Shown: one piece after another, positions 326 through 26,015 of the stretch
Numbering within the stretch: the first letter of the stretch is position 1
Layout of the letters: every line of letters starts with the position of its first letter
Sequence record: MK327935.1
Direction: 5' to 3' (one strand)
DNA from: Escherichia phage vB_EcoM_G2494
Length of the DNA stretch: 64,000 nt
Notes under the pieces: generated by a model
Told to the model about the DNA's origin: nothing
Seen by the model: only the letters and a program-made list of their open reading frames with translations
The model's database searches: none
Translations under genes and position numbers: made by a program

Positions 326-802
326 CTATTTGTTAAGCCCTTTAAAGCCAAACACTTTCTTTAATGCATGTTCGGTGATGATCTTAAACTCCATGTTATG
401 CTTTTGACATAAATCAACCGCAGCTTTCCACTTTTCCGTGTTTACAGTATATGTGTAACACTCTTGCATATATCTTTGCTTAGTCTTAGTGGTTATTCTT
501 TTTGGCCTTTCTGGTGGCCTTGTCTCTTTTGCTGGTTTTATTTCCCATAAATGCTCTTTACCATCATCAAACTTAACGTATATATCCATGTAGTAGCGCC
601 TTTTTTTGTTATCGGCGCTGGACCAGTATGGAATCACTACGGTCTCTGACCCCCATTTAGCGACTCTAGGGTTACGGTCTAGCCACTTAAAAATGTGCAA
701 CTCCCAGCTTGACCTATACGTTATTTTATGCAAGTTATTCCCTTTGTACTTCTCAGGATTTTCCGGTCTATACTTGCCCTTATAAGTGTTAGATCCTCCC
801 AT
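326..802 (-). CDS. gp4-position protein (head completion by synteny) with Vsr/PD-(D/E)XK-like nuclease motifs
   Basis: 158 aa, divergently oriented next to gp53 as in T4; motifs YRSSWE ... YMDIYV ... EIKPAKE resemble the endonuclease module attached to the gp17 intein. Confidence 0.5.
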   Translation of the reverse strand: MGGSNTYKGKYRPENPEKYKGNNLHKITYRSSWELHIFKWLDRNPRVAKWGSETVVIPYWSSADNKKRRYYMDIYVKFDDGKEHLWEIKPAKETRPPERPKRITTKTKQRYMQECYTYTVNTEKWKAAVDLCQKHNMEFKIITEHALKKVFGFKGLNK

Positions 803-817
803 TTTAGCACCCTTTAT

Positions 818-825
818 TATAAATA
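818..825 (+). promoter_or_regulatory. T4-type late promoter TATAAATA upstream of gp53
   Basis: exact TATAAATA about 30 nt upstream of the 858 start. Confidence 0.5.
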
Positions 826-857: not shown

Positions 858-1412
858 ATGCTCTTTTCTTTCTTCCCTGCCATTGAATACAACGGCAAGA
901 TGATTACTGACATTGTGCGCAATTACCGCGCATATTTCAACGCAATAATTTCTGATTATAACATACAAACATATTACATTCAAGGTAGTCCACGACCGGA
1001 ACAAGTTGCATATGAAGTATACGGAAACCAACAACTTTATTGGATCTTGCTGATGCTTAATGACGTATACGATCCGTTCCATGACTGGATCACCGATCAA
1101 GAGACAGCATATGAATCAGCCGAACAGCGATATGCAAATGTAGGAGGAAATCAAGTATTATACCATGTTGATATTGACGGAAACAAGTATTGGAATCTTA
1201 CCGAATATCCGAAAGGATCAAGCAATTGGTATGATAAAGGGGATATTCATCACCGTTATTTGCAGTTTCAGGGTGCATTGTCGGCAGTAGACACACTGGA
1301 AGATGCGATCCTCCGCAATGAGGAACGACGCAAGATCAAGATCATAGATCCTACACAAATTAAACAATTTATTAACGCATTCATTCGAGAAATGGAAAAG
1401 GCTGATGTGTAA
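858..1412 (+). CDS. 53: baseplate wedge protein gp53
   Basis: 184 aa, immediately upstream of gp5; size and position match T4 gp53. Confidence 0.6.
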   Translation: MLFSFFPAIEYNGKMITDIVRNYRAYFNAIISDYNIQTYYIQGSPRPEQVAYEVYGNQQLYWILLMLNDVYDPFHDWITDQETAYESAEQRYANVGGNQVLYHVDIDGNKYWNLTEYPKGSSNWYDKGDIHHRYLQFQGALSAVDTLEDAILRNEERRKIKIIDPTQIKQFINAFIREMEKADV

Positions 1413-1423
1413 GGTGATTAATT

Positions 1424-3223
1424 ATGCTAATGTTTAATAACTCCGTTAAATGGTTTACCGGAATTGTAGAAAACAGGGAAGACCCATTAATGCTGGGGCG
1501 TGTTCAGGTTAGGATTCATGGTATACATCCCTCGCTATCCGCGCACGGTGACATTCAAGGTCTTCCAACCGAAGATCTATTATGGATTACGCCAGTACAA
1601 GATATTACAAGCGCGGCGATCTCCGGTATAGGTCAAAGCCCTACTGGTATTGTTGAAGGTTCAATGGTATTTGGTTTGGCTTTAGATGAACGTTATTTAA
1701 ACTGCGTTATTCTGGGTACTATTGCCGGACAATATACAGAGAAACCACTCACTACAGAGGGTTTTTGTGACCCTTCTGGTGCATATCCTCGTTATATTGG
1801 TAATGATGTTAATATTCTTGCTCGTGGCGGTATTAACCCAGAAACCGGGCAAACAACAAAACCTGATAGTGTCTATATTCGAGATGAAAACACTGGAGTT
1901 GCAGTAAATCCAGACGACGAGCCATTAGACCAAATTCCGGTTGATGATAATCCTGATTTTACAATAGAAAAAATGCTGCGGGGCGATGAGGGATATCGCG
2001 AGAAATGGTATCTTGATTCAGAAGGATATCCGACAATAGGCATCGGGCATTTGATCATTTATAAGAAAACCAGTGATCTGGGTATTATCAATAATGAACT
2101 TTCTAAGCTGGTAGGGCGTGAAGTTACAAACGGAAGACTTACAGCCGAAGAAGTTAGTAAAGTATTTGCTGACGATATAGAAAAGACTCGTCGTGATATG
2201 CGCAAACATCCACGAATTGCACCTGTCTATAATAAATGTAATGCCTCACGTCGTATGGCATTAGAAAATATGGCGTTTCAAATGGGTGTTAGTGGATTGG
2301 GTAAATTTAAGAATAGTCTTGCTGCGATGTTAGCGGAAGAATGGAAACAAGCCTATGATGGATTACGTCAATCGGTGTGGGCTAACCAAACTCCAGGACG
2401 TTCAAGCCGTGTTTCTAAAATTATTCTTACCGGTAACTTAGAATCATATGGCGTAATTGCTCCAAAGAAAGAGGAATCTGTTTCTGAGGATCCGCGAGCA
2501 CGTTTGAGAAATGCCCGTATTGCTGCCTATAAGACGCAGAGAGCAGAAGAAGACCCAGAAGCACCGTTTACCCCACAAGACACACGAATCATGTTTAAAG
2601 AGCCTAAGAGTTCGTATTCTGCAAGGTATCCATATAACCATGTGTACGAGTCAGAGAGCGGTCATATTATCGAGATTGATGATACTCCTTCTCATGAGCG
2701 ATATCATCGTAAACATCCTTCGGGTACATTTGAAGAAACCAGACCGGACGGAACGAGGGTAGAAAAGATTGAAGGTGATGATTATCTGATCGTTAAGCAA
2801 GGCCGTAAAGTAAACGTTAAGGGTAATTTGCAAGTTGTTGTTGAAGGTGACGCGCAAGTTTATTATATGGGTAATGTGATGCAAACCGTTGATGGTAACG
2901 TCACTGAATTTATTCGTGGCAATGTTAATCAGACCGTTGAAGGTACTGCTAACATGCATGTTGTCGGTGATGTTATCGCACAGCTTGACGCTAATTTAAC
3001 GGCTAATGTCAAGGGTAATGCTGAATTAATGATCGAGGGTAACACTACCGAAACAATTAAAGGTAACTATGATTTAACCGTTGAGGGTAATTTTAATATG
3101 ACCGTCAATGGCACTAAATCAGATCAGGTTAATGGTGACTGGTCCCGTAATTGTGGTGCAAGCGTTAAAGATATTGCATCTGGCACAGTTAAAATTGATG
3201 GTAGCCGTATTGATCTTGGGTGA
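1424..3223 (+). CDS. 5: baseplate hub/central spike with tail lysozyme domain, gp5
   Basis: 599 aa; lysozyme motif EGYREKWYLDSEGYPTIGIGHLI matches T4 lysozyme family; C-terminal VxGxxxxx beta-helix repeats (VKGNLQVVVEGDAQV...). Confidence 0.9.
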   Translation: MLMFNNSVKWFTGIVENREDPLMLGRVQVRIHGIHPSLSAHGDIQGLPTEDLLWITPVQDITSAAISGIGQSPTGIVEGSMVFGLALDERYLNCVILGTIAGQYTEKPLTTEGFCDPSGAYPRYIGNDVNILARGGINPETGQTTKPDSVYIRDENTGVAVNPDDEPLDQIPVDDNPDFTIEKMLRGDEGYREKWYLDSEGYPTIGIGHLIIYKKTSDLGIINNELSKLVGREVTNGRLTAEEVSKVFADDIEKTRRDMRKHPRIAPVYNKCNASRRMALENMAFQMGVSGLGKFKNSLAAMLAEEWKQAYDGLRQSVWANQTPGRSSRVSKIILTGNLESYGVIAPKKEESVSEDPRARLRNARIAAYKTQRAEEDPEAPFTPQDTRIMFKEPKSSYSARYPYNHVYESESGHIIEIDDTPSHERYHRKHPSGTFEETRPDGTRVEKIEGDDYLIVKQGRKVNVKGNLQVVVEGDAQVYYMGNVMQTVDGNVTEFIRGNVNQTVEGTANMHVVGDVIAQLDANLTANVKGNAELMIEGNTTETIKGNYDLTVEGNFNMTVNGTKSDQVNGDWSRNCGASVKDIASGTVKIDGSRIDLG

Positions 3224-3231
3224 GGTAACTA

Positions 3232-3798
3232 ATGGTTGAAATTCTTCCGATGAGTTCAAAATTGGAGGATATCAGCGAGCGAGAAATCTTTGAGGTGGTG
3301 TTCTCTTATAAAGCAACGCCACCGGATGCAAATACCACATACACGATTAAAGAGTTTAAGATCAGCGAGTATCGCCCTAATAAGGGCGTTACCGTTGAAG
3401 AAACTAAAATATCTGGTGAGTATCGTGATAGTTTTTCGCTTGGCGCGGATTCTCTTAAATATATAACGAAAGATCGAATTAAAAAATCTGCCGGAAGTTT
3501 TGATGATTTACCAGATCCAACTACCGCAGATCTATATTATTTTAACGCTCCTACACGTCTACAGGAGGTTTATACTTATAAAGTAACCCTAACCTATATC
3601 CAATCTGTTTCAGAGTCTTCTGGGGGTTCTGGTGAAGGAAATAGTGGTGGTTCCAATAGCCGAGAGGGTGCTGGTGAAACTAATCCGCCTCCGGTAGTAA
3701 CAGAACACACAATAGAGAAAGTTTATACTCAAACCGTTTTTGGAAATTGGGATGTGTGGGCGCAGCAACTAAGAGATTATGTACATAGGGGTGTTTAA
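3232..3798 (+). CDS. hypothetical protein at the gp5.1 position
   Basis: 188 aa ORF between gp5 and gp5.4; Gly/Ser-rich linker; no recognised motif. Confidence 0.4.
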   Translation: MVEILPMSSKLEDISEREIFEVVFSYKATPPDANTTYTIKEFKISEYRPNKGVTVEETKISGEYRDSFSLGADSLKYITKDRIKKSAGSFDDLPDPTTADLYYFNAPTRLQEVYTYKVTLTYIQSVSESSGGSGEGNSGGSNSREGAGETNPPPVVTEHTIEKVYTQTVFGNWDVWAQQLRDYVHRGV

Positions 3799-3852
3799 TG
3801 GCTGGCGGGTGTCGATGCCCCGCCGTCATAAATAGTTATATAATGATTTAAT

Positions 3853-4605
3853 ATGAGGTGTTTTATGATTAAAGTGCATGACGATTTCAAAGAACTTTAT
3901 AATGTATGCTCTGAACGTTTTTATTATGATGAAACGAGCGGAACAATTAGACGAAAATATGATTGTAAGAGCAATCATTATAAAGCGGGTGATGTAGTAG
4001 GATATAAAAGAAAACAAAAAAGAACAAATAGTGAAGATGATGTGTTCTATATGTTTACTAAGATTGATGGAGTTTCTTATTCAATTCAACAAATTGTCTT
4101 CTTGCTTACCGAAGGGTATATACCCAATTGCATCGATCATATTAACAGAGACACACTAGATAATCACCGTGAAAATCTTCGTGATGCATCGCGAAGCGGA
4201 AATGCTCGCAATAAATGCAAGGTATATAAAAATGGTTTCGCCTCTTCCGATTACATTGGTGTGTCTAAGCGGGGTTCTGGATTTAGGTGTCGTATTAGAA
4301 TAGACCATGTTATTGCATATGATGAAACGTTCGAAAATGAAACATCTGCCGCATATGCATATAACGTAGAATGTATAAAATTAGGTGTCAGTGAGTATAC
4401 CAACTTTAATAAATTTGAAGACGAAGAATCTGTTAGGAAACTTTACGAAAAAGAGAAAGAAAATAAAGAGTTTCAAGAATATTGGAAGGGAACACATAAA
4501 CAGGGTAAACGATGGGGCGCTAAAGTTAAGAGTGTGCGTTTGGGTACATTCGAAACAAGGGAAGAAGCTAGACTAGCTATAATTCGCTACAAAGAGGGGT
4601 TTTGA
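3853..4605 (+). CDS. free-standing HNH homing endonuclease with AP2-type DNA-binding domains
   Basis: HNH motif [18 protein letters not shown]; AP2-like segments [15 protein letters not shown] and [23 protein letters not shown]; inserted between gp5.1-like and gp5.4. Confidence 0.8.
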
Positions 4606-4898
4606 TGGCTGGTTTATCATATGACAAAGCAAAAACTACTGGACATGGTAATTACGGTCCGACAATAATTAATGCAACTCAATCTAAGGTATTTGTTGAG
4701 GGTATCCCTGTATTAGTCGAAGGAGACCCAATTACACCACATACAAAAACAACAAAGCCTTATGATACACACGGGGGAACTACGGTCGCCAGTACCCCGA
4801 AAGTATTTGTTACCGGAAAGAAAGCAATTCAAATGGCAGATCGTATTAGCTGTGGCGATACCGTCGCTATGGCATCACCGAAGGTATTCATAAAATGA
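4602..4898 (+). CDS. 5.4: PAAR-type spike tip protein gp5.4
   Basis: 98 aa, Gly/Thr/Pro/Val-rich, sits between gp5 region and gp6 as T4 gp5.4. Confidence 0.7.
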
Positions 4899-6799
4899 CA
4901 AAGCAAAAGATTACACAAATTCCTGATATTTTTAATGCTGCTACATTCGATGAAATTAAAAGCGCATTAACAGACTGGATGAGAAACCAGGAAGAATTTA
5001 AAGATTTTGATTTTAATGGTGCTGGTATTAACGTATTGATGGACTTGCTCGCATATAACACTCTGTATATTCAGCAATTCGCTAACGCCGCGCTATATGA
5101 ATCTTTTATCAGAACGGCAATTAAGCGTAGTTCAGTTGTTCAAGCCGCGCAAGATTTAGGATATTTGCCAGCAAGTAAAACTAGTGCATCGACCACAATT
5201 ATGTTGCACGTATCACATCCGCGAAATCCGGCAAGTATTCGAATCCCACGAGGAACTAAATTTATTGCAAGTGTGGATCGCCAGACTTCTTACCCGTTTG
5301 TGACTACAGAAGACGTTGTGAGCGTTTTAGGTTCAAATGGTTTATATACGCCTATGCTTAAAGTCGCACAAGGTCGTATTGTTCGTACAGAAATGTTATT
5401 TGATCCGAAGAAACAAATTCTGATCCGTGATCCTGATATTGACCGCGCTCAGGTTAAGTTGTGGGTAGATGGTGCTGAATGGAAAGACTGGACACGAGAA
5501 AGCATTGTTAACGCAACTGGCGCTAGTAATATTTTCTATATGCGTGAAACCGTAGACGGTCATACAGAAATCTTCTTTGGTGAAGGTGAATCAACTTTAT
5601 CTGCTGCTGGCGGGGCGCTGGAAGCAAATTATATTGGTGGACTTAAGCCGTCAACTGGTGCTAATATTGTTATCGAATATATTAGCACTAAAGGCGCGGA
5701 AGCAAACGGTTCAGTTAATTTTACATATGCGGATACCCTTGCATCTATCTCTATTGTTAAAATTATTGAGAATCCGACAAATGATCGTGATTATGTCGGT
5801 GCAGATGGTGGTGGTGATCCTGAATCAATCGAACGTATCCGTGAACTTGCTCCGGTAATGCGTGAATCTCAGCGTCGTTGTGTGACTGCTTCCGACTATG
5901 AGGCTTTTGTGTCTAGCCGTTTTGGTAGTATTGTTCAGGCGGTACAATGTTTCACCGACCGAGAAAAACCGGGTTATGCTTTTGTTGCTGTTAAGCCTAA
6001 ATCTGGCTTGCGCTTGACAACCGTTCAAAAAGAAGATATGCGGGATTATCTGGCAAAATATAACCTTGCCCCTATCACGCCGAGCATCATTGACCCTAAC
6101 TATCTGTATATTAAACAGAATATTAAAGTTTCCTATTCAATCAACGACTTGTCAGAATCAGAGCAGTGGTTGCGCGGTGCGGTTATTGATCAGATTGATG
6201 CATATTATACCGACGAAGTGGAAATTTTTAACCAGACCTTTAGTAAGTCTAAAATGCTTGCGCGTATTGACAAAGCTGATGTATCTGTGATAGGTTCTAG
6301 TGCAGAAATCGAGATGGTGCGCGAGATCGACAACTTCTATAAAGCACCGATGGCGGGAATCAAGTTTTTAAACCAGTATAAGAGCGGAATCAAGTCTAGT
6401 TCATTCAACTTCGAAAAGGACGACAAGCAATATCCGATCCATTATGTAAGTACAGAAATGAACAAAGAATCAGGTTTAGCTAAATTGTTGGTTGGACCTT
6501 TCCCTGTTGATTCTACAATCGCTTTACCGCACTATTCCGGCACTGATTTTGATAAAGAGGTTATTGACGGGGCGGACCTATACTTTGAGGTTGGAGAAGT
6601 TCAGCATTATGACGACCTTATTTCATGGGATCTGGGTAAACTGAATATCAATAGCGATCGCTTTACTGGTTCATATATTGAGTTGACAGCTAAACCGATT
6701 GCTGATAACATCTTTACTAAAGACGGTTCTTTGATCGTGTTTGAAAACGATCTCCGTCCTCAGTACACAACTATTAGTCTGGAGGCAATTGCTCAATGA
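4895..6799 (+). CDS. 6: baseplate wedge subunit gp6
   Basis: 634 aa; long conserved blocks vs T4 gp6 ([50 protein letters not shown]). Confidence 0.9.
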
Positions 6800-9700: not shown

Positions 9701-9882
9701 AGAACAGCGAATTGTTCCACGGACTTAAAGCAAGCGAACGAAGATTTGCAATGAGTCCACTGTTTGACCAGTCGGCGGTAACATTCTCTATGTTCCGTGA
9801 ACTTGTAGATAAACGGTTGAAGGATAATATAGGGAATCCACGCGATCCGAAGAATCCGACACAGAGGAAAATTAATGGCTAA
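6796..9882 (+). CDS. 7: baseplate wedge initiator gp7
   Basis: 1028 aa, size and position as T4 gp7 (1032 aa). Confidence 0.85.
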   Translation: MIKAPSVTSLTIEKLSANQAYITWDDVGENFFYFVELAETRTRDGEIIPVDELSWVNLGYTADQNWFEDKNLFPEYYYKFRVAVAAEGFEQSKWIETEEFQTFKTNAYNFSMMREFNLANEFIKEKFTYDNREYVKFNTDLIQASLMKEDFVFSPEYANMTNISNYIVVDENFHEIQDHIEKVCIDINRTMLAEMNGVLYLFERFQPIVKVSNDKGQSWKAYKAFNDRVGNPVSRTCVYQSKTTTYVLGYDRIFYGRQASDTRWSADDVRFSDDTITFAKVGDENDLGIDVEVFGVFSRLTGDTTKYAEAMACSDDYLWVGAKDVIRRIRLKNTPVDTVQGSPTFGEKIFDPDVIRVTGNDKAVIQKMDVIDGKLLVFVTGEVKQRYQDPTKPENVVPSDDAGVYLIGSDGLSFQRVFGNTPQEREYIQHGFSNMSTNGDEVFISHYNHHFESILPDPETAAKYELGEAVKYSQEPTYLTDKKIHQTTFRASYDDLRIWELGPQAYYNEADYTWMRRNGVRVWITNDNRPLVVYPEVVYTQEVDTSGILDKNRINREVYDKGTVTCYLNNVKFEGFKQYASGVMFHKNTGEIIGFYQFNYRVRDQVGVYWKPTNVAFVAELQNQVREVPWVPVHYDREQDPDLRPLLNKMTPDSFLLENENFRKFSEYYLQFLSDGSGTYYNKLKNLIKNKYPREQDAYEYLWSEMNKRNIYADKNKRDAVVRFFESRKSDFYSTKGVEASYKFLFKLLYNEDVEIEVESQAGLEYDIVVSSTNIDEDIVGRTIYTPTGRANVTYLEREYEGGRLRWRVTIHNLIGRFEEGQVIKSEKTAFEGMILVGVRGKELLSSSIDYINRSRSQYTMKIKSALPVSRYANDVMRFVHPVGFGFIGVTLLTMFINSGLSMKHTETIIQSLKNYKFDSGLPSVYPDRVADLDVDGNIKKDPLTGKPLYLTSPTMGEEFPVPPEYDQENSELFHGLKASERRFAMSPLFDQSAVTFSMFRELVDKRLKDNIGNPRDPKNPTQRKING

Positions 9883-10870
9883 TGAAAATAGTGTGATCTA
9901 TCGCTCAATCATTACTAGTAAATTCAGAACGGAAAAACTTCTGAATTTCTATAATTCTGTAGGCGATGAGGCAAATCAAATTACAATTTATGGAACGTTT
10001 GGACGTTCGGAGCCGTGGTCAGAAAACGAAAAAGAGGTGGGCTTTGCCCCACCTTATCCGACCGATTCAACGGCTGGTGTTGTTGACATGTGGACCCATA
10101 TGATGGGGGCGGTTAAGATTAACAAATCACTTCTTGATGCGGTTATCCCTCGTAAAGATTGGGGTGATACCGGACAGGATAACCCGCGCACATTCTTTAT
10201 CAATGACATTGTTGTTGTCAACTCAGCACCATATAACCGAACTGATGTTGGTAGCGGCTGGATGGTGTATCGCGTAACCGATGTTCCTGATCGCGGTTAC
10301 TGCTCGATTTCAAGCATTGACGCTAAAGTAGAGTGTTTGAAGTTGGGCGGAAAGTGGACACCCACTCATGAATCAATTGCGCCACCTGTAGGAAAGGGCG
10401 ATTCTATTGATATGGGTGATGGGTATCGTTGGGAATATCTGTACACAATTCCACCTGATGCGGCGATCAACCGTTGCACCAATGAACATATTGTTGTACC
10501 GTTCCCCGATGAACTGCGACAAGATCCGGCGCGTTGGGGCTATGACAATGTGATCACATGGTATAATGACTATAATCTTCTTTATCGGCTGAAAGTAGTA
10601 ACTTTGCGTTTTCAGGCTTATATGGACTCTGCGCAATTCCCAACTACCGCGTTAGTGGGTAATACTGGTTTCCGTCAGTTAAGCATTATCCTTAACCCAT
10701 TGGAAAAGAAAGCACGCCCTAGCGATCCAGACGTTAAAGCGGTCAAAGATAAGTACCGACCGCAAGACTTAGAGCCACACTCAGGCGAAATGATCTACAT
10801 GGAAAACCGACAACCTATCGTTCGGTCATTAGATCAAACAGAACTTGTTTCTGTATTGTTTGAGTTCTAA
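9875..10870 (+). CDS. 8: baseplate wedge subunit gp8
   Basis: 331 aa; near-collinear with T4 gp8 (VIYRSIITSKFRTEKLLNFYNS, GEMIYMENRQPI). Confidence 0.9.
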   Translation: MANENSVIYRSIITSKFRTEKLLNFYNSVGDEANQITIYGTFGRSEPWSENEKEVGFAPPYPTDSTAGVVDMWTHMMGAVKINKSLLDAVIPRKDWGDTGQDNPRTFFINDIVVVNSAPYNRTDVGSGWMVYRVTDVPDRGYCSISSIDAKVECLKLGGKWTPTHESIAPPVGKGDSIDMGDGYRWEYLYTIPPDAAINRCTNEHIVVPFPDELRQDPARWGYDNVITWYNDYNLLYRLKVVTLRFQAYMDSAQFPTTALVGNTGFRQLSIILNPLEKKARPSDPDVKAVKDKYRPQDLEPHSGEMIYMENRQPIVRSLDQTELVSVLFEF

Positions 10871-10980: not shown

Positions 10981-11238
10981 ATGGCACGTCGTAAATTTAC
11001 AGATAATTGTGAAGCAATTCAGGTATCCCCTTGCGGTTGGGATGTGATCGCGAACGGTGAAAAGATCGGAGAGATCATCGATCATACTCATTCATCATTA
11101 GCCGATTACACCGATGAACTGTGGGAGGGTATCAACTTCATGAATGACACTAAACGATTCAAGACTATCGACGAAGCTATCTATTTTGTGTATAATCCAA
11201 CTTTCGGTATGTGGGGAACTAGAAAATGGCACGCGTAA
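10981..11238 (+). CDS. hypothetical early protein
   Basis: 85 aa; strong SD GGAGGA; first gene of three-gene cassette; starts MAR. Confidence 0.5.
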   Translation: MARRKFTDNCEAIQVSPCGWDVIANGEKIGEIIDHTHSSLADYTDELWEGINFMNDTKRFKTIDEAIYFVYNPTFGMWGTRKWHA

Positions 11239-11558
11239 ATATTAAATTGCATTACACAATGAATAAAGCTAAGTTCCCAATGCAAAAGCATTACTATGGT
11301 CTACGTGCACAAGATCCTAAACTCTATGGTACTCATTGGTTTTGTAAACATGATAACCAATGGCACACATACGAAGAAATGCACGAGATGATGAAACAGG
11401 GTATTGAATTTAGTTATTCTAATTATGACCATCGTATAACTTGCATTCGAAAATTGAAACGATGGATTCGTAAGAATCCGCAATTTAAAAACTTTGTGTT
11501 CTTTATGTCTCATGTTTATTTGGGACATAGCGTTACCGTCACAGCAAAGGTTAAATAA
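11226..11558 (+). CDS. hypothetical early protein
   Basis: 110 aa; overlaps previous gene; starts MAR. Confidence 0.5.
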   Translation: MARVNIKLHYTMNKAKFPMQKHYYGLRAQDPKLYGTHWFCKHDNQWHTYEEMHEMMKQGIEFSYSNYDHRITCIRKLKRWIRKNPQFKNFVFFMSHVYLGHSVTVTAKVK

Positions 11559-12397
11559 TGGCACGACTTTCTAAACAAGAACAAAAATTACACGATCGGG
11601 CGATGGAGTTGATTAATTCAGATCGTCCATTGACATTTGAAGAAAAAGAATTTTGCTATAACAATTATCATGGCGATGGACTAGGTGGTTCCGGTGCATT
11701 CTTTACCCCAGAATGGCTTGCCTGGGATTTTACCATTGATGCACACTGCACCGGAAAAGTATTAGATCTTTGTGCGGGGATCGGTCGCTTATCTTTTTGT
11801 ATGTTACATCGTTGTAAGCCAGAAAAGATCGTATGCGTCGAACTCAATCCAGAATTTGCGCGGATTGGCAAGCGACTATTACCGGAGGCAGAATGGATCA
11901 CCAGCGATGTATTCGAATTTGAGTCAAACGAAAAATTCGATGTGGTGATCAGCAATCCACCTTTCGGTAAAATCAATACTACAGACACAAAGGATGTATT
12001 TGAATATACTGGCGGTGAGTTTGAATTTAAGGTTATGACGTTAGGCCAGAAGTTTGCCGATGTAGGTTATTTTATTGTTCCTGCTAGTTCCGCTGGGTTT
12101 GCTTATTCCGGTAGACCTTATTATGATGAATCAGTGAAGTCTAATAAATATCTAAAATGGAGCAAACAAACTGGTTTGGTGACTTACGCCGGATGTGGGA
12201 TCGATACATCAATCTATCGCGATGAATGGCATAGTACCAACGTTTTAACAGAAGTGGTTGAGGTTCGGTATTACGAGAAAGAAGCCGTAGAAGCGCCTAA
12301 ATCACGTCCTAACGAACAAATAGAAGAAAGTAAGGAGATCACCTTACCGAAACAGGAAAGCGAGTCTGGGACGCTCTCAGATTTGTTTGACATTTAA
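11558..12397 (+). CDS. gamma-class N6-adenine DNA methyltransferase (orphan)
   Basis: 279 aa; motif X GAFFTP, motif I VLDLCAGIGRLS, motif IV ISNPPFG in gamma order; TAATG start overlap with upstream gene. Confidence 0.65.
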   Translation: MARLSKQEQKLHDRAMELINSDRPLTFEEKEFCYNNYHGDGLGGSGAFFTPEWLAWDFTIDAHCTGKVLDLCAGIGRLSFCMLHRCKPEKIVCVELNPEFARIGKRLLPEAEWITSDVFEFESNEKFDVVISNPPFGKINTTDTKDVFEYTGGEFEFKVMTLGQKFADVGYFIVPASSAGFAYSGRPYYDESVKSNKYLKWSKQTGLVTYAGCGIDTSIYRDEWHSTNVLTEVVEVRYYEKEAVEAPKSRPNEQIEESKEITLPKQESESGTLSDLFDI

Positions 12398-12472: not shown

Positions 12473-13327
12473 ATGGCACAAGTTCCAAAGAAAAGAATAG
12501 ACACAGGTACTGTCGGCAATCCATCGACTGGCGATATCTTATATGATGGCGGTAATAAAATTAACGATAACTTTGATTCAATATATGACGCATTTGCTGA
12601 TCAACGGTTTAAAGACGTAGACCACGGCGTAGGAAGAATGGTTATTCATGCAACCGGATACTATCAGAAACATCCACGTCAAAGCTACTCTGGGTCCGCT
12701 GTTGAGATTGGGAGTCTACACGATATCGATACAACTCAAGGCGCACTTATTGCTATTCTACCTAAAGCAAAGGTTGGTGAGGGTGTTGTATTCATAAATA
12801 GTAACGGTAGCTTTTCAACGACGACACCGCTCAATATTAGAACTCAAGCAGGTGATTCTATTAGCGGGTATTCCGGTGATGCTATAATAACACAACCATT
12901 TTCAAAAGTCACTGTTTGGTGTACTGCCGTTGAAGGTAGTCGCGTAACATGGCGATTGGGTATCGAAAGTATGTTTACCGATACAACAACGCCATTAGAT
13001 AAAACAGTTAACGTAACTGGAGTAGCAACAAACGTTGCTATTGCCGCAAAAACAGAATACGTTTCCATCAAATTATTAACTACCGCTAGCAATACATCCG
13101 GTTCAAAAATGCGTTCAAGTGAAACGCTACTGATGATTGATTCTAAAGCCGGAAAAGTTTATGCGACGGAATATGCAGTTTTGCAGAAGACAGAAGACGA
13201 ATTATACACGGTTCGTTATTTCATCGGTTCCGGCGATAAAGTATATGCAGAGTATAAGGCTACTGGCGAAAATATTCGTTTAGCAGTTAAAGCCGTAGAC
13301 ACTATTAAAATCGGGGTTGCTACATGA
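12473..13327 (+). CDS. 9: baseplate wedge / long tail fiber connector gp9
   Basis: 284 aa; strong similarity to T4 gp9 (IDTG..GN.STGDIL.DGGNKIN, HATGYYQKH, VFINSNGS, SIESMF, KIGVA). Confidence 0.9.
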   Translation: MAQVPKKRIDTGTVGNPSTGDILYDGGNKINDNFDSIYDAFADQRFKDVDHGVGRMVIHATGYYQKHPRQSYSGSAVEIGSLHDIDTTQGALIAILPKAKVGEGVVFINSNGSFSTTTPLNIRTQAGDSISGYSGDAIITQPFSKVTVWCTAVEGSRVTWRLGIESMFTDTTTPLDKTVNVTGVATNVAIAAKTEYVSIKLLTTASNTSGSKMRSSETLLMIDSKAGKVYATEYAVLQKTEDELYTVRYFIGSGDKVYAEYKATGENIRLAVKAVDTIKIGVAT

Positions 13328-20751: not shown

Positions 20752-21507
20752 ATGAAAAACTATTATCTATACGAAATAAAGAACAATATAAATGGTAAGA
20801 TATATGTTGGCATTCGTGGGTATGATGGTGACATAAGTCAAGATCCTTATATGGGTAGTGGATTGACTCTTAAGAGGTCTATTAAAAAGAACGGGATAGA
20901 AAACTTCACAAAAACAATTCTCAAAACGTTTGACTCATGGAAAGAGGCAAGGAAAGCAGAAAGAGAAATAGTTACAGAGGAATTTGTAAAAAGAGAAGAT
21001 ACCTATAATGTTTCGGTTGGTGGACAAGGTGGAAATACTCACGCTGGGATGAGCGAAGAACGAAGAAAACTTGCAAGCGAAAGACACGCAGAAGCAAACC
21101 GAAATAGAGTATGGAAGCAAGAATCTAGAGATAAGGTTAGCGCAAGATTCAAAGGTCATAAGCTATCACAGAAGCAGATAGACGCGCTAAAGAAGGCAAA
21201 CACAGGAAGAAAGTTCACAGAAGAACACAAGTTCAAAATAGGTAAAACGTGGCGAGGAAAGAAACGACCAGATATAGGAGAGAAGGTTGCGGCAAAATTA
21301 ACAGGGAGAAAACTACCCCCAGAACATGTGGCAGCAATAACGCAAAATACACCGAGAGGAAAACAACACTTTAGGGCAAAAAGATTCTTCATCGACGATA
21401 TGGAATTTTATATTTTGAGTGACGCAGCTAAAATGTTTGGTATAAGTTATAAAACGGTTAAAGCTAGACTTCTCTCAGATAAGTTTCCTACATGGAGATA
21501 TGAATAA
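20752..21507 (+). CDS. free-standing GIY-YIG homing endonuclease (Seg-like)
   Basis: GIY-YIG motif YLYEIKNNINGKIYVGI; NUMOD-like repeats; C-terminal HTH ILSDAAKMFGISYKTVKARL; inserted between gp14 and gp15. Confidence 0.8.
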   Translation: MKNYYLYEIKNNINGKIYVGIRGYDGDISQDPYMGSGLTLKRSIKKNGIENFTKTILKTFDSWKEARKAEREIVTEEFVKREDTYNVSVGGQGGNTHAGMSEERRKLASERHAEANRNRVWKQESRDKVSARFKGHKLSQKQIDALKKANTGRKFTEEHKFKIGKTWRGKKRPDIGEKVAAKLTGRKLPPEHVAAITQNTPRGKQHFRAKRFFIDDMEFYILSDAAKMFGISYKTVKARLLSDKFPTWRYE

Positions 21508-22396
21508 ATGTTTTCACATTTTTACAATTCGTCAATTAGACGGTATATTGTATTGCTGGGTAATTTATTCTCCGGCGTACAAATTAAAAGGGTGCGTAGC
21601 GACGGTGAGCGTTTTATTAAAGTTCCTATCACCTACGCAAAGAAAGAAAAATTCATGATGAGTCTGGACAAATATAACAATATCTCAAGTGAGGAAGACG
21701 TAGCAAAGGTAGAAACTATTTTACCGCGTATGTGTCTTTCTTTGATTGATATGACATACGCCCAGAACTTTAAAACAAATATTGCAAATAAGACAGTACC
21801 AAAATATACGGCTGATGGAATCAGGAGCGTAACACAATATAATCCTGTACCATATAAGTTTACTTTCGAGTTAGGGATTTATACGCGTACAATATAATCC
21901 TGTACCATATAAGTTTACTTTCGAGTTAGGGATTTATACGCGTAACGAAGATGATATGTTTCAGATAATTGAACAGATTCTTCCTTACTTCCAGCCTCAT
22001 TTTAACTGTAAGATTAAAGAACTACACGGTAATGATGTATGGATTGATCGAGATATTCAGGTCACTATTAGTTCTATTACTCCAGATGAACAGGTAGGCG
22101 AAGATAAGTTTTCTCGTCGTCGTCTTGAGTGGACCATTATGTTCGAATTTATCGGCTTTATATATCCTCCAGCTACCGACGTTAAGGGGGAAATTAGAAC
22201 GATTTATCTTGATTTTCATGCTAATTCTCGTGAATTAAATCCTAGCGGTAATTTTGAATCAGTGGATCACGAGGTCGTTAAACGTGACGTCGAGCAAGAA
22301 GATTGGGACGGAACAATCAAAGAATCATATTCTAGTGATATTCCAATACCAGTTGCACCAACTCCACCGGGTCCACGTATTGTAAGAGAATTTTAA
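21508..22396 (+). pseudogene. 15: gene 15 (tail sheath stabiliser/tail completion) split into two ORFs (21508..21897 and 21956..22396) by a frameshifting tandem duplication
   Basis: N-part ends ...ELGIYTRTI*, C-part starts MFQIIEQILPYFQPHF; removing one 55-bp repeat copy restores the continuous T4-like sequence ...GIYTRNEDDMFQIIEQ... Confidence 0.7.
21835..21944 (+). repeat. perfect 55-bp tandem direct duplication inside gene 15
   Basis: caatataatcctgtaccatataagtttactttcgagttagggatttatacgcgta present twice back to back (21835-21889 and 21890-21944). Confidence 0.85.

Positions 22397-22409: not shown

Positions 22410-26015
<3,606 letters not shown>

Follow-up and report, generated by a model that had tools for sequence, protein, structure and literature searches.

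A free-standing gene for a probable HNH-AP2 homing endonuclease at the 5.1/5.4 junction of a Krischvirus

Intronless homing and marker exclusion have reportedly been described for the endonucleases SegF, SegG and MobE of phage T4 (Belle 2002, Liu 2003, and Wilson and Edgell, as cited in PMC2993671). In the case of SegF and SegG, donor polymorphisms usually confer resistance. We know of no HNH-AP2 nuclease for which the target has been mapped. Genes for HNH-AP2 homing endonucleases have been tabulated in RB49, JSE, RB16 and RB43 (Petrov et al., 2010; PMC2993671, Table 5), KP15 is also listed among the T4-related phages that carry them (PMC2993671), and the passage of PMC5318435 that cites Magnani (2004) reports enzymes of this type for RB49 and Felix 01 and also for Trichodesmium and Tetrahymena. 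The finding of one more such gene, here called HEG-A, is correct but ordinary, homing genes of the HNH-AP2 type being an established category in T4-related phages. It is also already known in that orthologues have been deposited in GenBank, three of them labelled "(putative) HNH homing endonuclease"; a literature search found no papers dealing with the HEG-A locus.

HEG-A was studied in a window of 64,000 nt, i.e., the whole stretch of Escherichia phage vB_EcoM_G2494 (MK327935.1) that was analysed. The window is from a Krischvirus (RB49-like coliphage), and a megablast search with positions 3000-5500 returned 59 phage records, all of them Krischvirus, at 97-99% identity. An ORF of 250 aa on the + strand at 3853..4605, which the first-pass annotation had placed in the baseplate hub operon, between a gp5.1-like gene and the PAAR gene 5.4, was confirmed from the ORF list and the sequence, and both of its neighbours were matched (Table 1). 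Since gp53, gp5, gp6 and gp7 surround it, HEG-A is assigned to the baseplate hub/wedge operon. Translation is likely to begin at ATG 3865, giving a protein of 246 aa, rather than at ATG 3853, the mechanical start of the ORF. The former codon is preceded by GAGGTG at 3856-3861, a Shine-Dalgarno sequence is absent before the latter, and the GenBank orthologues from Skers, GEC-3S, W115, JEP8 and Whisky are all annotated from the equivalent of ATG 3865 as a CDS of 741 nt. The gene is therefore taken as 3865..4605, a Shine-Dalgarno sequence being found only at the second ATG and all orthologues beginning there. Its TGA stop (4603-4605) shares the A with the ATG of 5.4 at 4605 in a TGATG overlap, this ATG and not the TTG at 4602 of the ORF list being the true start of 5.4. 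HEG-A is a separate ORF that has a Shine-Dalgarno sequence, lies 66 nt past the 5.1 stop and overlaps the 5.4 start. A group I intron or intein context was rejected on account of this separateness and the short spacer, and because the window contains no Rfam families.

Table 1. Positions of the features discussed in the text; coordinates refer to the window unless another locus is named.
Feature	Position	Strand	Remarks
Late promoter motif TATAAATA (T4-type)	818..825	+	Upstream of gene 53; nearest upstream of the operon containing HEG-A; next downstream 12438
gp53	858..1412		Surrounding gene
gp5	1424..3223		Surrounding gene
Gene 5.1	3232..3798	+	Upstream neighbour; PHROG_1168; PF26906 Phage_T4_Y07E in homologous contigs
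Left copy of imperfect 17-nt direct repeat, GGGTGTTTAATGGCTGG	3789..3805	.	Spacing 807
Vestigial 17-codon ORF	3798..3851	+	From old 5.4 ATG (overlaps 5.1 TAA); read from sequence
GC-rich hairpin GGCGGG-N-CCCGCC	3804..3824	+	Left edge of insertion
Insertion relative to empty-site Krischviruses (RB49, JSE, Phi1, others)	3805..4611	+	807 bp
HEG-A (HNH-AP2 homing endonuclease CDS)	3865..4605	+	Domain matches, 741-nt orthologue CDSs, six intact copies
HNH (beta-beta-alpha-metal) catalytic core	4120..4215	+	aa 86-117; D91, H92, N104, N113 kept
AP2 module 1	4249..4398	+	~aa 129-178; three strands and helix
AP2 module 2	4477..4593	+	~aa 205-243; shortened three-strand-plus-helix unit
Right copy of repeat, GGGGTTTTGATGGCTGG	4596..4612	.	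Spacing 807
Gene 5.4, PAAR spike-tip protein	4605..4898	+	Downstream neighbour; PF05488, 41.2 bits
Recoded tract, gene 5.4 nt 9-61	4613..4665	+	16 substitutions vs RB49
gp6	4895..6799		Surrounding gene; gp7 also nearby
seg-like homing endonuclease gene	20752..21507	+	Between gp14 and gp15; PHROG_314 "homing endonuclease" 1e-46
gp17 (terminase large subunit)	22904..24655 and 24636..26015	+	Interrupted by ~1.29 kb; two ORFs in different frames
HEG-B loci	L003 (KFS-EC) 2513-3066; L014 (Makalu_003) 1513-2068; L015 (G37-3)		
HEG-C, third HNH-AP2 gene	L007 (Whisky) 2104-2658		Between 5.4 and gene 6; 184 aa

HEG-A had been described as free-standing and complete, its product being an HNH endonuclease with two AP2 modules, and this domain assignment stands, the nuclease part by a Pfam match above threshold and the AP2 part through profile and fold. 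HNH_3 (PF13392) scored 32.2 bits against a gathering cut-off of 24.8 over aa 79-119 of the 250-aa ORF, and PHROG_99, "HNH endonuclease", was matched at 1e-39. The residues that are invariant across homologues in a 32-sequence alignment, D91, H92, N104 and N113, are all present in HEG-A, which has the beta-beta-alpha-metal core with a catalytic His and conserved Asp/Asn. No Pfam AP2 (PF00847) match exceeded the gathering score; the C-terminal module reached 15.9 bits against a cut-off of 33.3, and module 1 gave nothing at E<=0.1. Module 1 is divergent, the conserved Trp being replaced by Phe and YLG by AYD, and module 2, which is ~4 residues shorter than plant AP2/ERF domains, is preceded by a long linker helix (aa 187-208). 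A family profile made from the 32-sequence alignment of HEG-A relatives detected, among PDB sequences, WRI1 (7wq5, 2.6e-21), TEM1 (7et4, 7.8e-14), ERF096 and AtERF1, as well as the HNH homing endonuclease I-HmuI (1u3e, 7.2e-9). The family profile was required for this, since a phmmer search of the PDB with the single sequence yielded chance matches to Mos1 transposase alone. In the AF2 model of HEG-A (pLDDT 91.8), DSSP delineates two beta3-alpha units, the two-AP2 structure of WRI1 aligns with HEG-A over 100 residues, and an hhalign comparison of the module-1 family profile with the C-terminal 50 residues of HEG-A gave a probability of 91% (E 1.1e-6). Both AP2 modules hold at profile level and in the predicted three-strand-plus-helix fold, despite the sub-threshold Pfam scores. 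The protein is composed of an I-HmuI-like N-terminal DNA-contact region, the HNH core, and two AP2 modules joined by the long helix. A word-indexed search for homologues returned 10 proteins and an exhaustive HMMER search 14,746 relatives, the closest of which outside HEG-A's own cluster is 37% identical; a scan with the family HMM found no further HNH-AP2 genes in the window.

In Krischviruses with an empty site, RB49 among them, 5.1 ends and 5.4 begins in a shared TAATG. Relative to these genomes the exact register of the insertion in the window is ambiguous inside the repeated ATGGCTGG, and the insert has a GC content of 0.358 vs 0.405 for the whole window. The left copy of the flanking 17-nt direct repeat is the original junction of the 5.1 stop and 5.4 start, and the right copy supplies the last codons and stop of HEG-A together with the Shine-Dalgarno sequence and ATG of 5.4. 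Homologous repair by itself does not explain this repeat, which counts against the homing explanation set out below. The stop of the vestigial ORF that reads from the old 5.4 ATG (3849-3851) is located 1 nt before ATG 3853, and this short frame could hand ribosomes from 5.1 to HEG-A; to judge from these arrangements, the chain formed by 5.1, the short ORF, HEG-A and 5.4 could be translationally coupled throughout. The hairpin at the left edge is unique in the window and is kept in metagenome copies of the insertion. It has no U-tract and is not called by a terminator scan, and no function was assigned to it, the 91-nt region folding no better than shuffles (z -1.46).

The first-pass annotation also credited HEG-A with a promoter of its own, represented by an upstream -10-like TATAAT. 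This claim is rejected because a sigma-70 scan found no -35/-10 pair upstream of HEG-A, because the hexamer, although present at 3839-3844, occurs in the window at chance level (83 observed vs 73 +/- 8 expected), and because no T4-type late promoter motif, TATAAATA, is present inside the insertion. In the window, TATAAATA is found at 818, 12438, 26011, 31604, 32457, 34212, 34772, 40452 and 44062, nine copies that all lie on the + strand. A total of 9 does not exceed the chance expectation of 6.3; those motifs that were compared with the ORF list sit just upstream of late genes, and the strand bias and the positions checked fit T4-type late promoters. Lacking a recognisable promoter, HEG-A is probably transcribed late as part of the baseplate operon, with read-through as the simplest expectation, and it seems more likely to be read from the operon transcript and translationally coupled.

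HEG-A is far from universal at this locus. The insertion is present in 6/59 Krischvirus records, namely those of Skers, GEC-3S (two records), W115, JEP8 and Whisky, the other Krischvirus records aligning in two pieces that skip ~807 bp, and 46 of the 59 relatives are without any endonuclease gene at the 5.1/5.4 locus. A tblastn search of 50,697 phage records detected no HEG-A copies elsewhere at >60% identity, and a protein of 99% identity is encoded by four metagenome/SRA contigs, in which its gene likewise lies at the 5.1/5.4 junction. None of the six GenBank copies is disrupted, and among them 22 positions vary, 14 synonymously and 8 non-synonymously, for a pN/pS of ~0.14; the protein is therefore under purifying selection. 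M63 is found in the HEG-A of the window alone among the copies. At a locus 17 kb away, identity to the window is 99.1% for W115, 98.6% for RB49, 98.4% for GEC-3S, 98.3% for Skers and 98.1% for Whisky, and the best matches there, SAP and TB34, are without HEG-A. Carriers and non-carriers are intermixed in this ranking, which is the mosaic pattern expected of a mobile cassette. HEG-A is sporadic and site-specific, being present or absent at one fixed site among near-identical genomes, and the mobility that had been claimed for it is borne out by the fixed site, the sporadic occurrence and the mosaic distribution of carriers.

The 5' part of gene 5.4 that follows the insertion is recoded relative to RB49. 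In this tract 14/19 codons (3-21) are changed, 12 of them synonymously, the other changes being P18G (three base changes) and V21I. Over the rest of 5.4 (233 nt) there is 1 substitution vs RB49, and the 16 substitutions in the 53-nt tract compare with 40 over the following 1843 nt (Fisher p 2e-13); divergence from RB49 across gp6, the next 1.6 kb, is ~2%. An identical tract is found in the six carrier records and the four metagenome copies, i.e., in 10/10 carriers, and in 0/7 sampled empty-site phages (RB49, JSE, Phi1, kaaroe, Sf20, Brandy and PTE-Eco09). When the whole phage collection was searched by blastn with 86 nt of junction and tract, the tract was recovered from no records other than the six carrier records and KFS-EC, and no comparable split between carriers and non-carriers was seen in other flank segments. 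Tract and gene are separable, since KFS-EC carries the former without HEG-A. The tract fits a candidate target site in resistant form, or a co-conversion tract, and its near-wholly synonymous recoding may have made the carrier's own DNA a poor substrate.

The explanation that best accounts for the locus overall is that HEG-A is, very probably, a free-standing ("intronless") HNH-AP2 homing endonuclease gene resident in Krischvirus. For this gene we infer a cleavage activity, a target position, a role of the tract in immunity and a mode of expression. In a mixed infection the enzyme, with its two AP2 modules acting as sequence-reading heads, would nick or cut the genome of a gene-less relative close to the 5.1/5.4 junction, most likely in the opening ~60 nt of gene 5.4. 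Repair by recombination on the carrier template would then copy the 807-bp cassette and adjacent DNA into the recipient. The recoding of the carrier's 5.4 (nt 9-61) would spare its own DNA from cutting, and the cassette is so placed that the essential PAAR gene retains its Shine-Dalgarno sequence and a stop/start overlap (TGATG). Enzymes of the I-HmuI type nick one strand, which counts against this explanation.

It is possible, if short of probable, that HEG-A is a homing endonuclease gene and that the 53-nt tract is a co-conversion remnant of the 5.4 gene of a divergent donor, the cleavage site lying elsewhere, e.g., at the 5.1/5.4 junction disrupted by the insertion. A conversion tract would be expected to begin right at the insertion and to break off sharply, as this tract does, and the right junction copy, GGGGTTTTGATGG, likewise departs from the RB49 sequence. 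A donor origin would also agree with the retention of the tract in KFS-EC beside a different endonuclease gene and with its GC content, which at 0.35 is below that of the RB49 allele (0.44), that of the cassette (0.358) being low as well. However, a tract-like 5.4 is found in no phage of the collection beyond the carriers and KFS-EC, and the left flank has no comparable tract, being RB49-like in the window up to the junction. Moreover, a co-conversion remnant and an immunity allele are compatible, as the usually protective donor polymorphisms of SegF and SegG illustrate.

The endonuclease gene of KFS-EC, HEG-B, encodes a protein of 179 aa with an HNH domain and one AP2 module that is ~30% identical to HEG-A. 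It was found in seven records from six phages (KFS-EC, Makalu_003, MIZ4, MIZ5, G5211 and G37-3), and its site is 18 bp upstream of that of HEG-A, in front of GGGGTGTTTAATGG, where it replaces the last codons of 5.1. Makalu_003 and G37-3 have an RB49-type 5.4 allele behind HEG-B, and in KFS-EC HEG-B is joined to the variant junction and recoded 5.4 tract of HEG-A, an arrangement that makes KFS-EC a hybrid. One possibility is that HEG-B displaced HEG-A in KFS-EC by repair that crossed over in the GGGG run. A third gene, HEG-C, the product of which is 41% identical to HEG-B, is found in Whisky together with HEG-A, so that the PAAR gene of this phage has an endonuclease gene on either side. In G37-3 nothing is inserted between 5.4 and 6, yet three Whisky-like substitutions are present at the 5.4 3' end (T.AT), which may be a conversion scar. 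Only tentatively can the 5.1/5.4/6 junctions be regarded as a contested site for which HEG-A, HEG-B and HEG-C compete and where one can displace another, KFS-EC being the scar of an event in which a genome with HEG-A was cut by HEG-B at its intact left junction copy and HEG-B took the place of HEG-A during repair. If true, the saturating synonymous recoding of 5.4 nt 9-61 would mark the recognition site of HEG-A and represent a defined natural substrate for an AP2-guided nuclease.

The occurrence of two other HNH-AP2 genes that target the same small region is one of several observations that make it unlikely that HEG-A is an inert or domesticated passenger, e.g., a DNA-binding regulator, which is inherited vertically in one sublineage, was lost or never gained elsewhere, and has no present homing. 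All known copies are at one site and >=98.4% identical, and a single recent ancestor could account for this, but the catalytic residues are intact under a pN/pS of 0.14, carriers fall among non-carriers when another locus is compared, and HEG-A is accompanied in the window by two elements that W115, GEC-3S, Whisky and Skers lack. HNH_3 proteins have several roles in phages, and in HK97-like phages terminase-associated HNH proteins serve phage DNA metabolism, but such a role for HEG-A, or a general attack on host or competitor DNA, in place of site-specific homing is highly improbable given that the gene is not adjacent to terminase genes, that it is found in six records only and 46/59 relatives have no endonuclease gene at the locus, and that two sequence-reading AP2 modules and a fixed insertion site argue for site specificity.

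HEG-A, a seg-like gene and a split intein in gp17 together substantiate the proposal in the first-pass annotation that the late structural module carries several mobile elements. The second of these had been called a GIY-YIG gene. Its description as a seg-like gene of sporadic occurrence is supported by the PHROG_314 match, by an I-TevI DNA-binding domain (31.7 bits vs a cut-off of 27), with NUMOD3 also matched, and by its distribution, which among Krischviruses is limited to SAP, TB34, FL20, JSE, MIZ4 and MIZ5; the GIY-YIG domain itself is below the Pfam cut-off (SegE_GIY-YIG, 20.1 vs 25 bits). In the adjacent gp15 gene (21508-22396, + strand), a perfect 55-bp tandem duplication at 21834-21944 (2.0 copies, 100% match) frameshifts this essential tail sheath stabiliser into the ORFs 21508..21897 and 21956..22396. 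TB34 and RB49 have an intact gp15 of 834 nt without the extra 55-bp copy, and the duplication is either an assembly artefact or a real mutation that is probably lethal or compensated.

The insertion in gp17 opens directly behind the Walker-B DE, and its first residues, CVSGLTKV, look like block A of an intein with Cys1. The N-intein is followed by a zinc-ribbon-like stretch and then by a PD-(D/E)XK domain like those of TnsA-N and endonuclease I (PF08722, 36.7 bits; PHROG_15427, 1e-48). The first 104 residues of the second gp17 ORF, which end with VESHN before a C, match CatC (6dsl_B), an engineered consensus of atypical TerL split inteins, at 8.8e-13. In the AceL-TerL split intein, which has Cys1 and Cys+1, the N-intein measures 25 aa and the C-intein 104 aa (PMC11766414), and the proportions of the gp17 intein resemble these. 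Because of the two-ORF layout and the CatC match, the gp17 element is interpreted as an atypical TerL intein that is naturally split and has a nuclease fused to the end of its short N-intein; the earlier description as an intein endonuclease is correct as to intein and nuclease, but the intein is not contiguous, being divided over two ORFs. The split is annotated in TB34, and product lists indicate the same in SAP, kaaroe, JK32 and phiS. A different gp17 insertion of ~1 kb, which may be a conventional intein, is found in FL15, FL04, ECD7, kvi, Makalu_002/003 and others, and is annotated "DnaB helicase" in FL15, FL04 and PTE-Eco09. The HEG-A carriers W115, GEC-3S, Whisky, Skers and JEP8 have neither the seg-like gene nor the gp17 split intein, and no other Krischvirus in the collection combines these two with HEG-A.

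Two further regions of the window drew attention. Upstream of gene 53, the ORF 326-802 (- strand) is labelled "head closure" by PHROGs and has a gp4-like look, and shows the TnsA-like endonuclease N-terminal fold (PF08722, 73.7 bits). It shares its matches to PF08722 and PHROG_218 with the nuclease domain of the gp17 intein (24300-24650, + strand), which hints at a relationship between the two. At 11226-12397 (+ strand), two accessory ORFs are flanked by what are presumably gene 8 (9875..10870) and gene 9 (12473..13327). The larger, of 279 aa, is a methyltransferase by its matches to MTS (38.6 bits) and to an Eco57I-type methylase (26.5 bits), and the other, of 110 aa, has no Pfam match.

The importance of the locus beyond annotation is little. 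What is new is the sharply bounded synonymous recoding of 5.4, the 17-nt repeat that preserves the coupling of the PAAR gene, and the HNH-AP2 genes that appear to compete for the junction. The recoded first 60 nt of the PAAR gene provide a precise candidate recognition site, and KFS-EC, as a hybrid, suggests that one endonuclease gene has taken the place of another at this site. A late structural module with several independent selfish elements, in a combination that is unique among sequenced Krischviruses, illustrates the reassortment of homing endonuclease genes in T4-like phages.

The systems closest to HEG-A are its orthologues in GEC-3S (YP_009118820), Skers (QXN69013), W115 (USL84044), JEP8 and Whisky, which encode a 98.4-99.6% identical protein at the same junction. 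The window phage differs from them in few substitutions and in the addition of the seg-like gene and the gp17 split intein. Like the HNH-AP2 genes tabulated in other T4-related phages, HEG-A combines an HNH with AP2 domain(s), is free-standing and is unevenly distributed among close relatives; unlike them it has two AP2 modules and <=37% identity to any other cluster. RB49, which is among the tabulated phages, is without a gene at the HEG-A locus, and the other Krischvirus HNH-AP2 genes sampled, HEG-B (179 aa) and HEG-C (184 aa), have one AP2 module as read from their sequences. I-HmuI of Bacillus phage SPO1 (PDB 1u3e) is an intron-encoded HNH nicking enzyme, whereas HEG-A is free-standing, and the C-terminal DNA-binding modules of I-HmuI are helical and helix-turn-helix where HEG-A has two AP2 modules. 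In comparison to the plant AP2/ERF domains of AtERF1 (1gcc/2gcc), WRI1 (7wq5) and TEM1 (7et4), those of HEG-A are instead attached to a nuclease, module 1 being without the conserved Trp and module 2 ~4 residues shorter. The spread proposed for HEG-A resembles that of SegF, SegG and MobE of T4, which are located between conserved genes, cut the neighbour's allele in gene-less relatives, and are accompanied by co-conversion of the flanks and by carrier polymorphisms that protect, as is envisaged for the recoded 5.4 tract. SegF and SegG are GIY-YIG enzymes and MobE an HNH enzyme without AP2 modules, and their activity has been demonstrated, whereas that of HEG-A is predicted.
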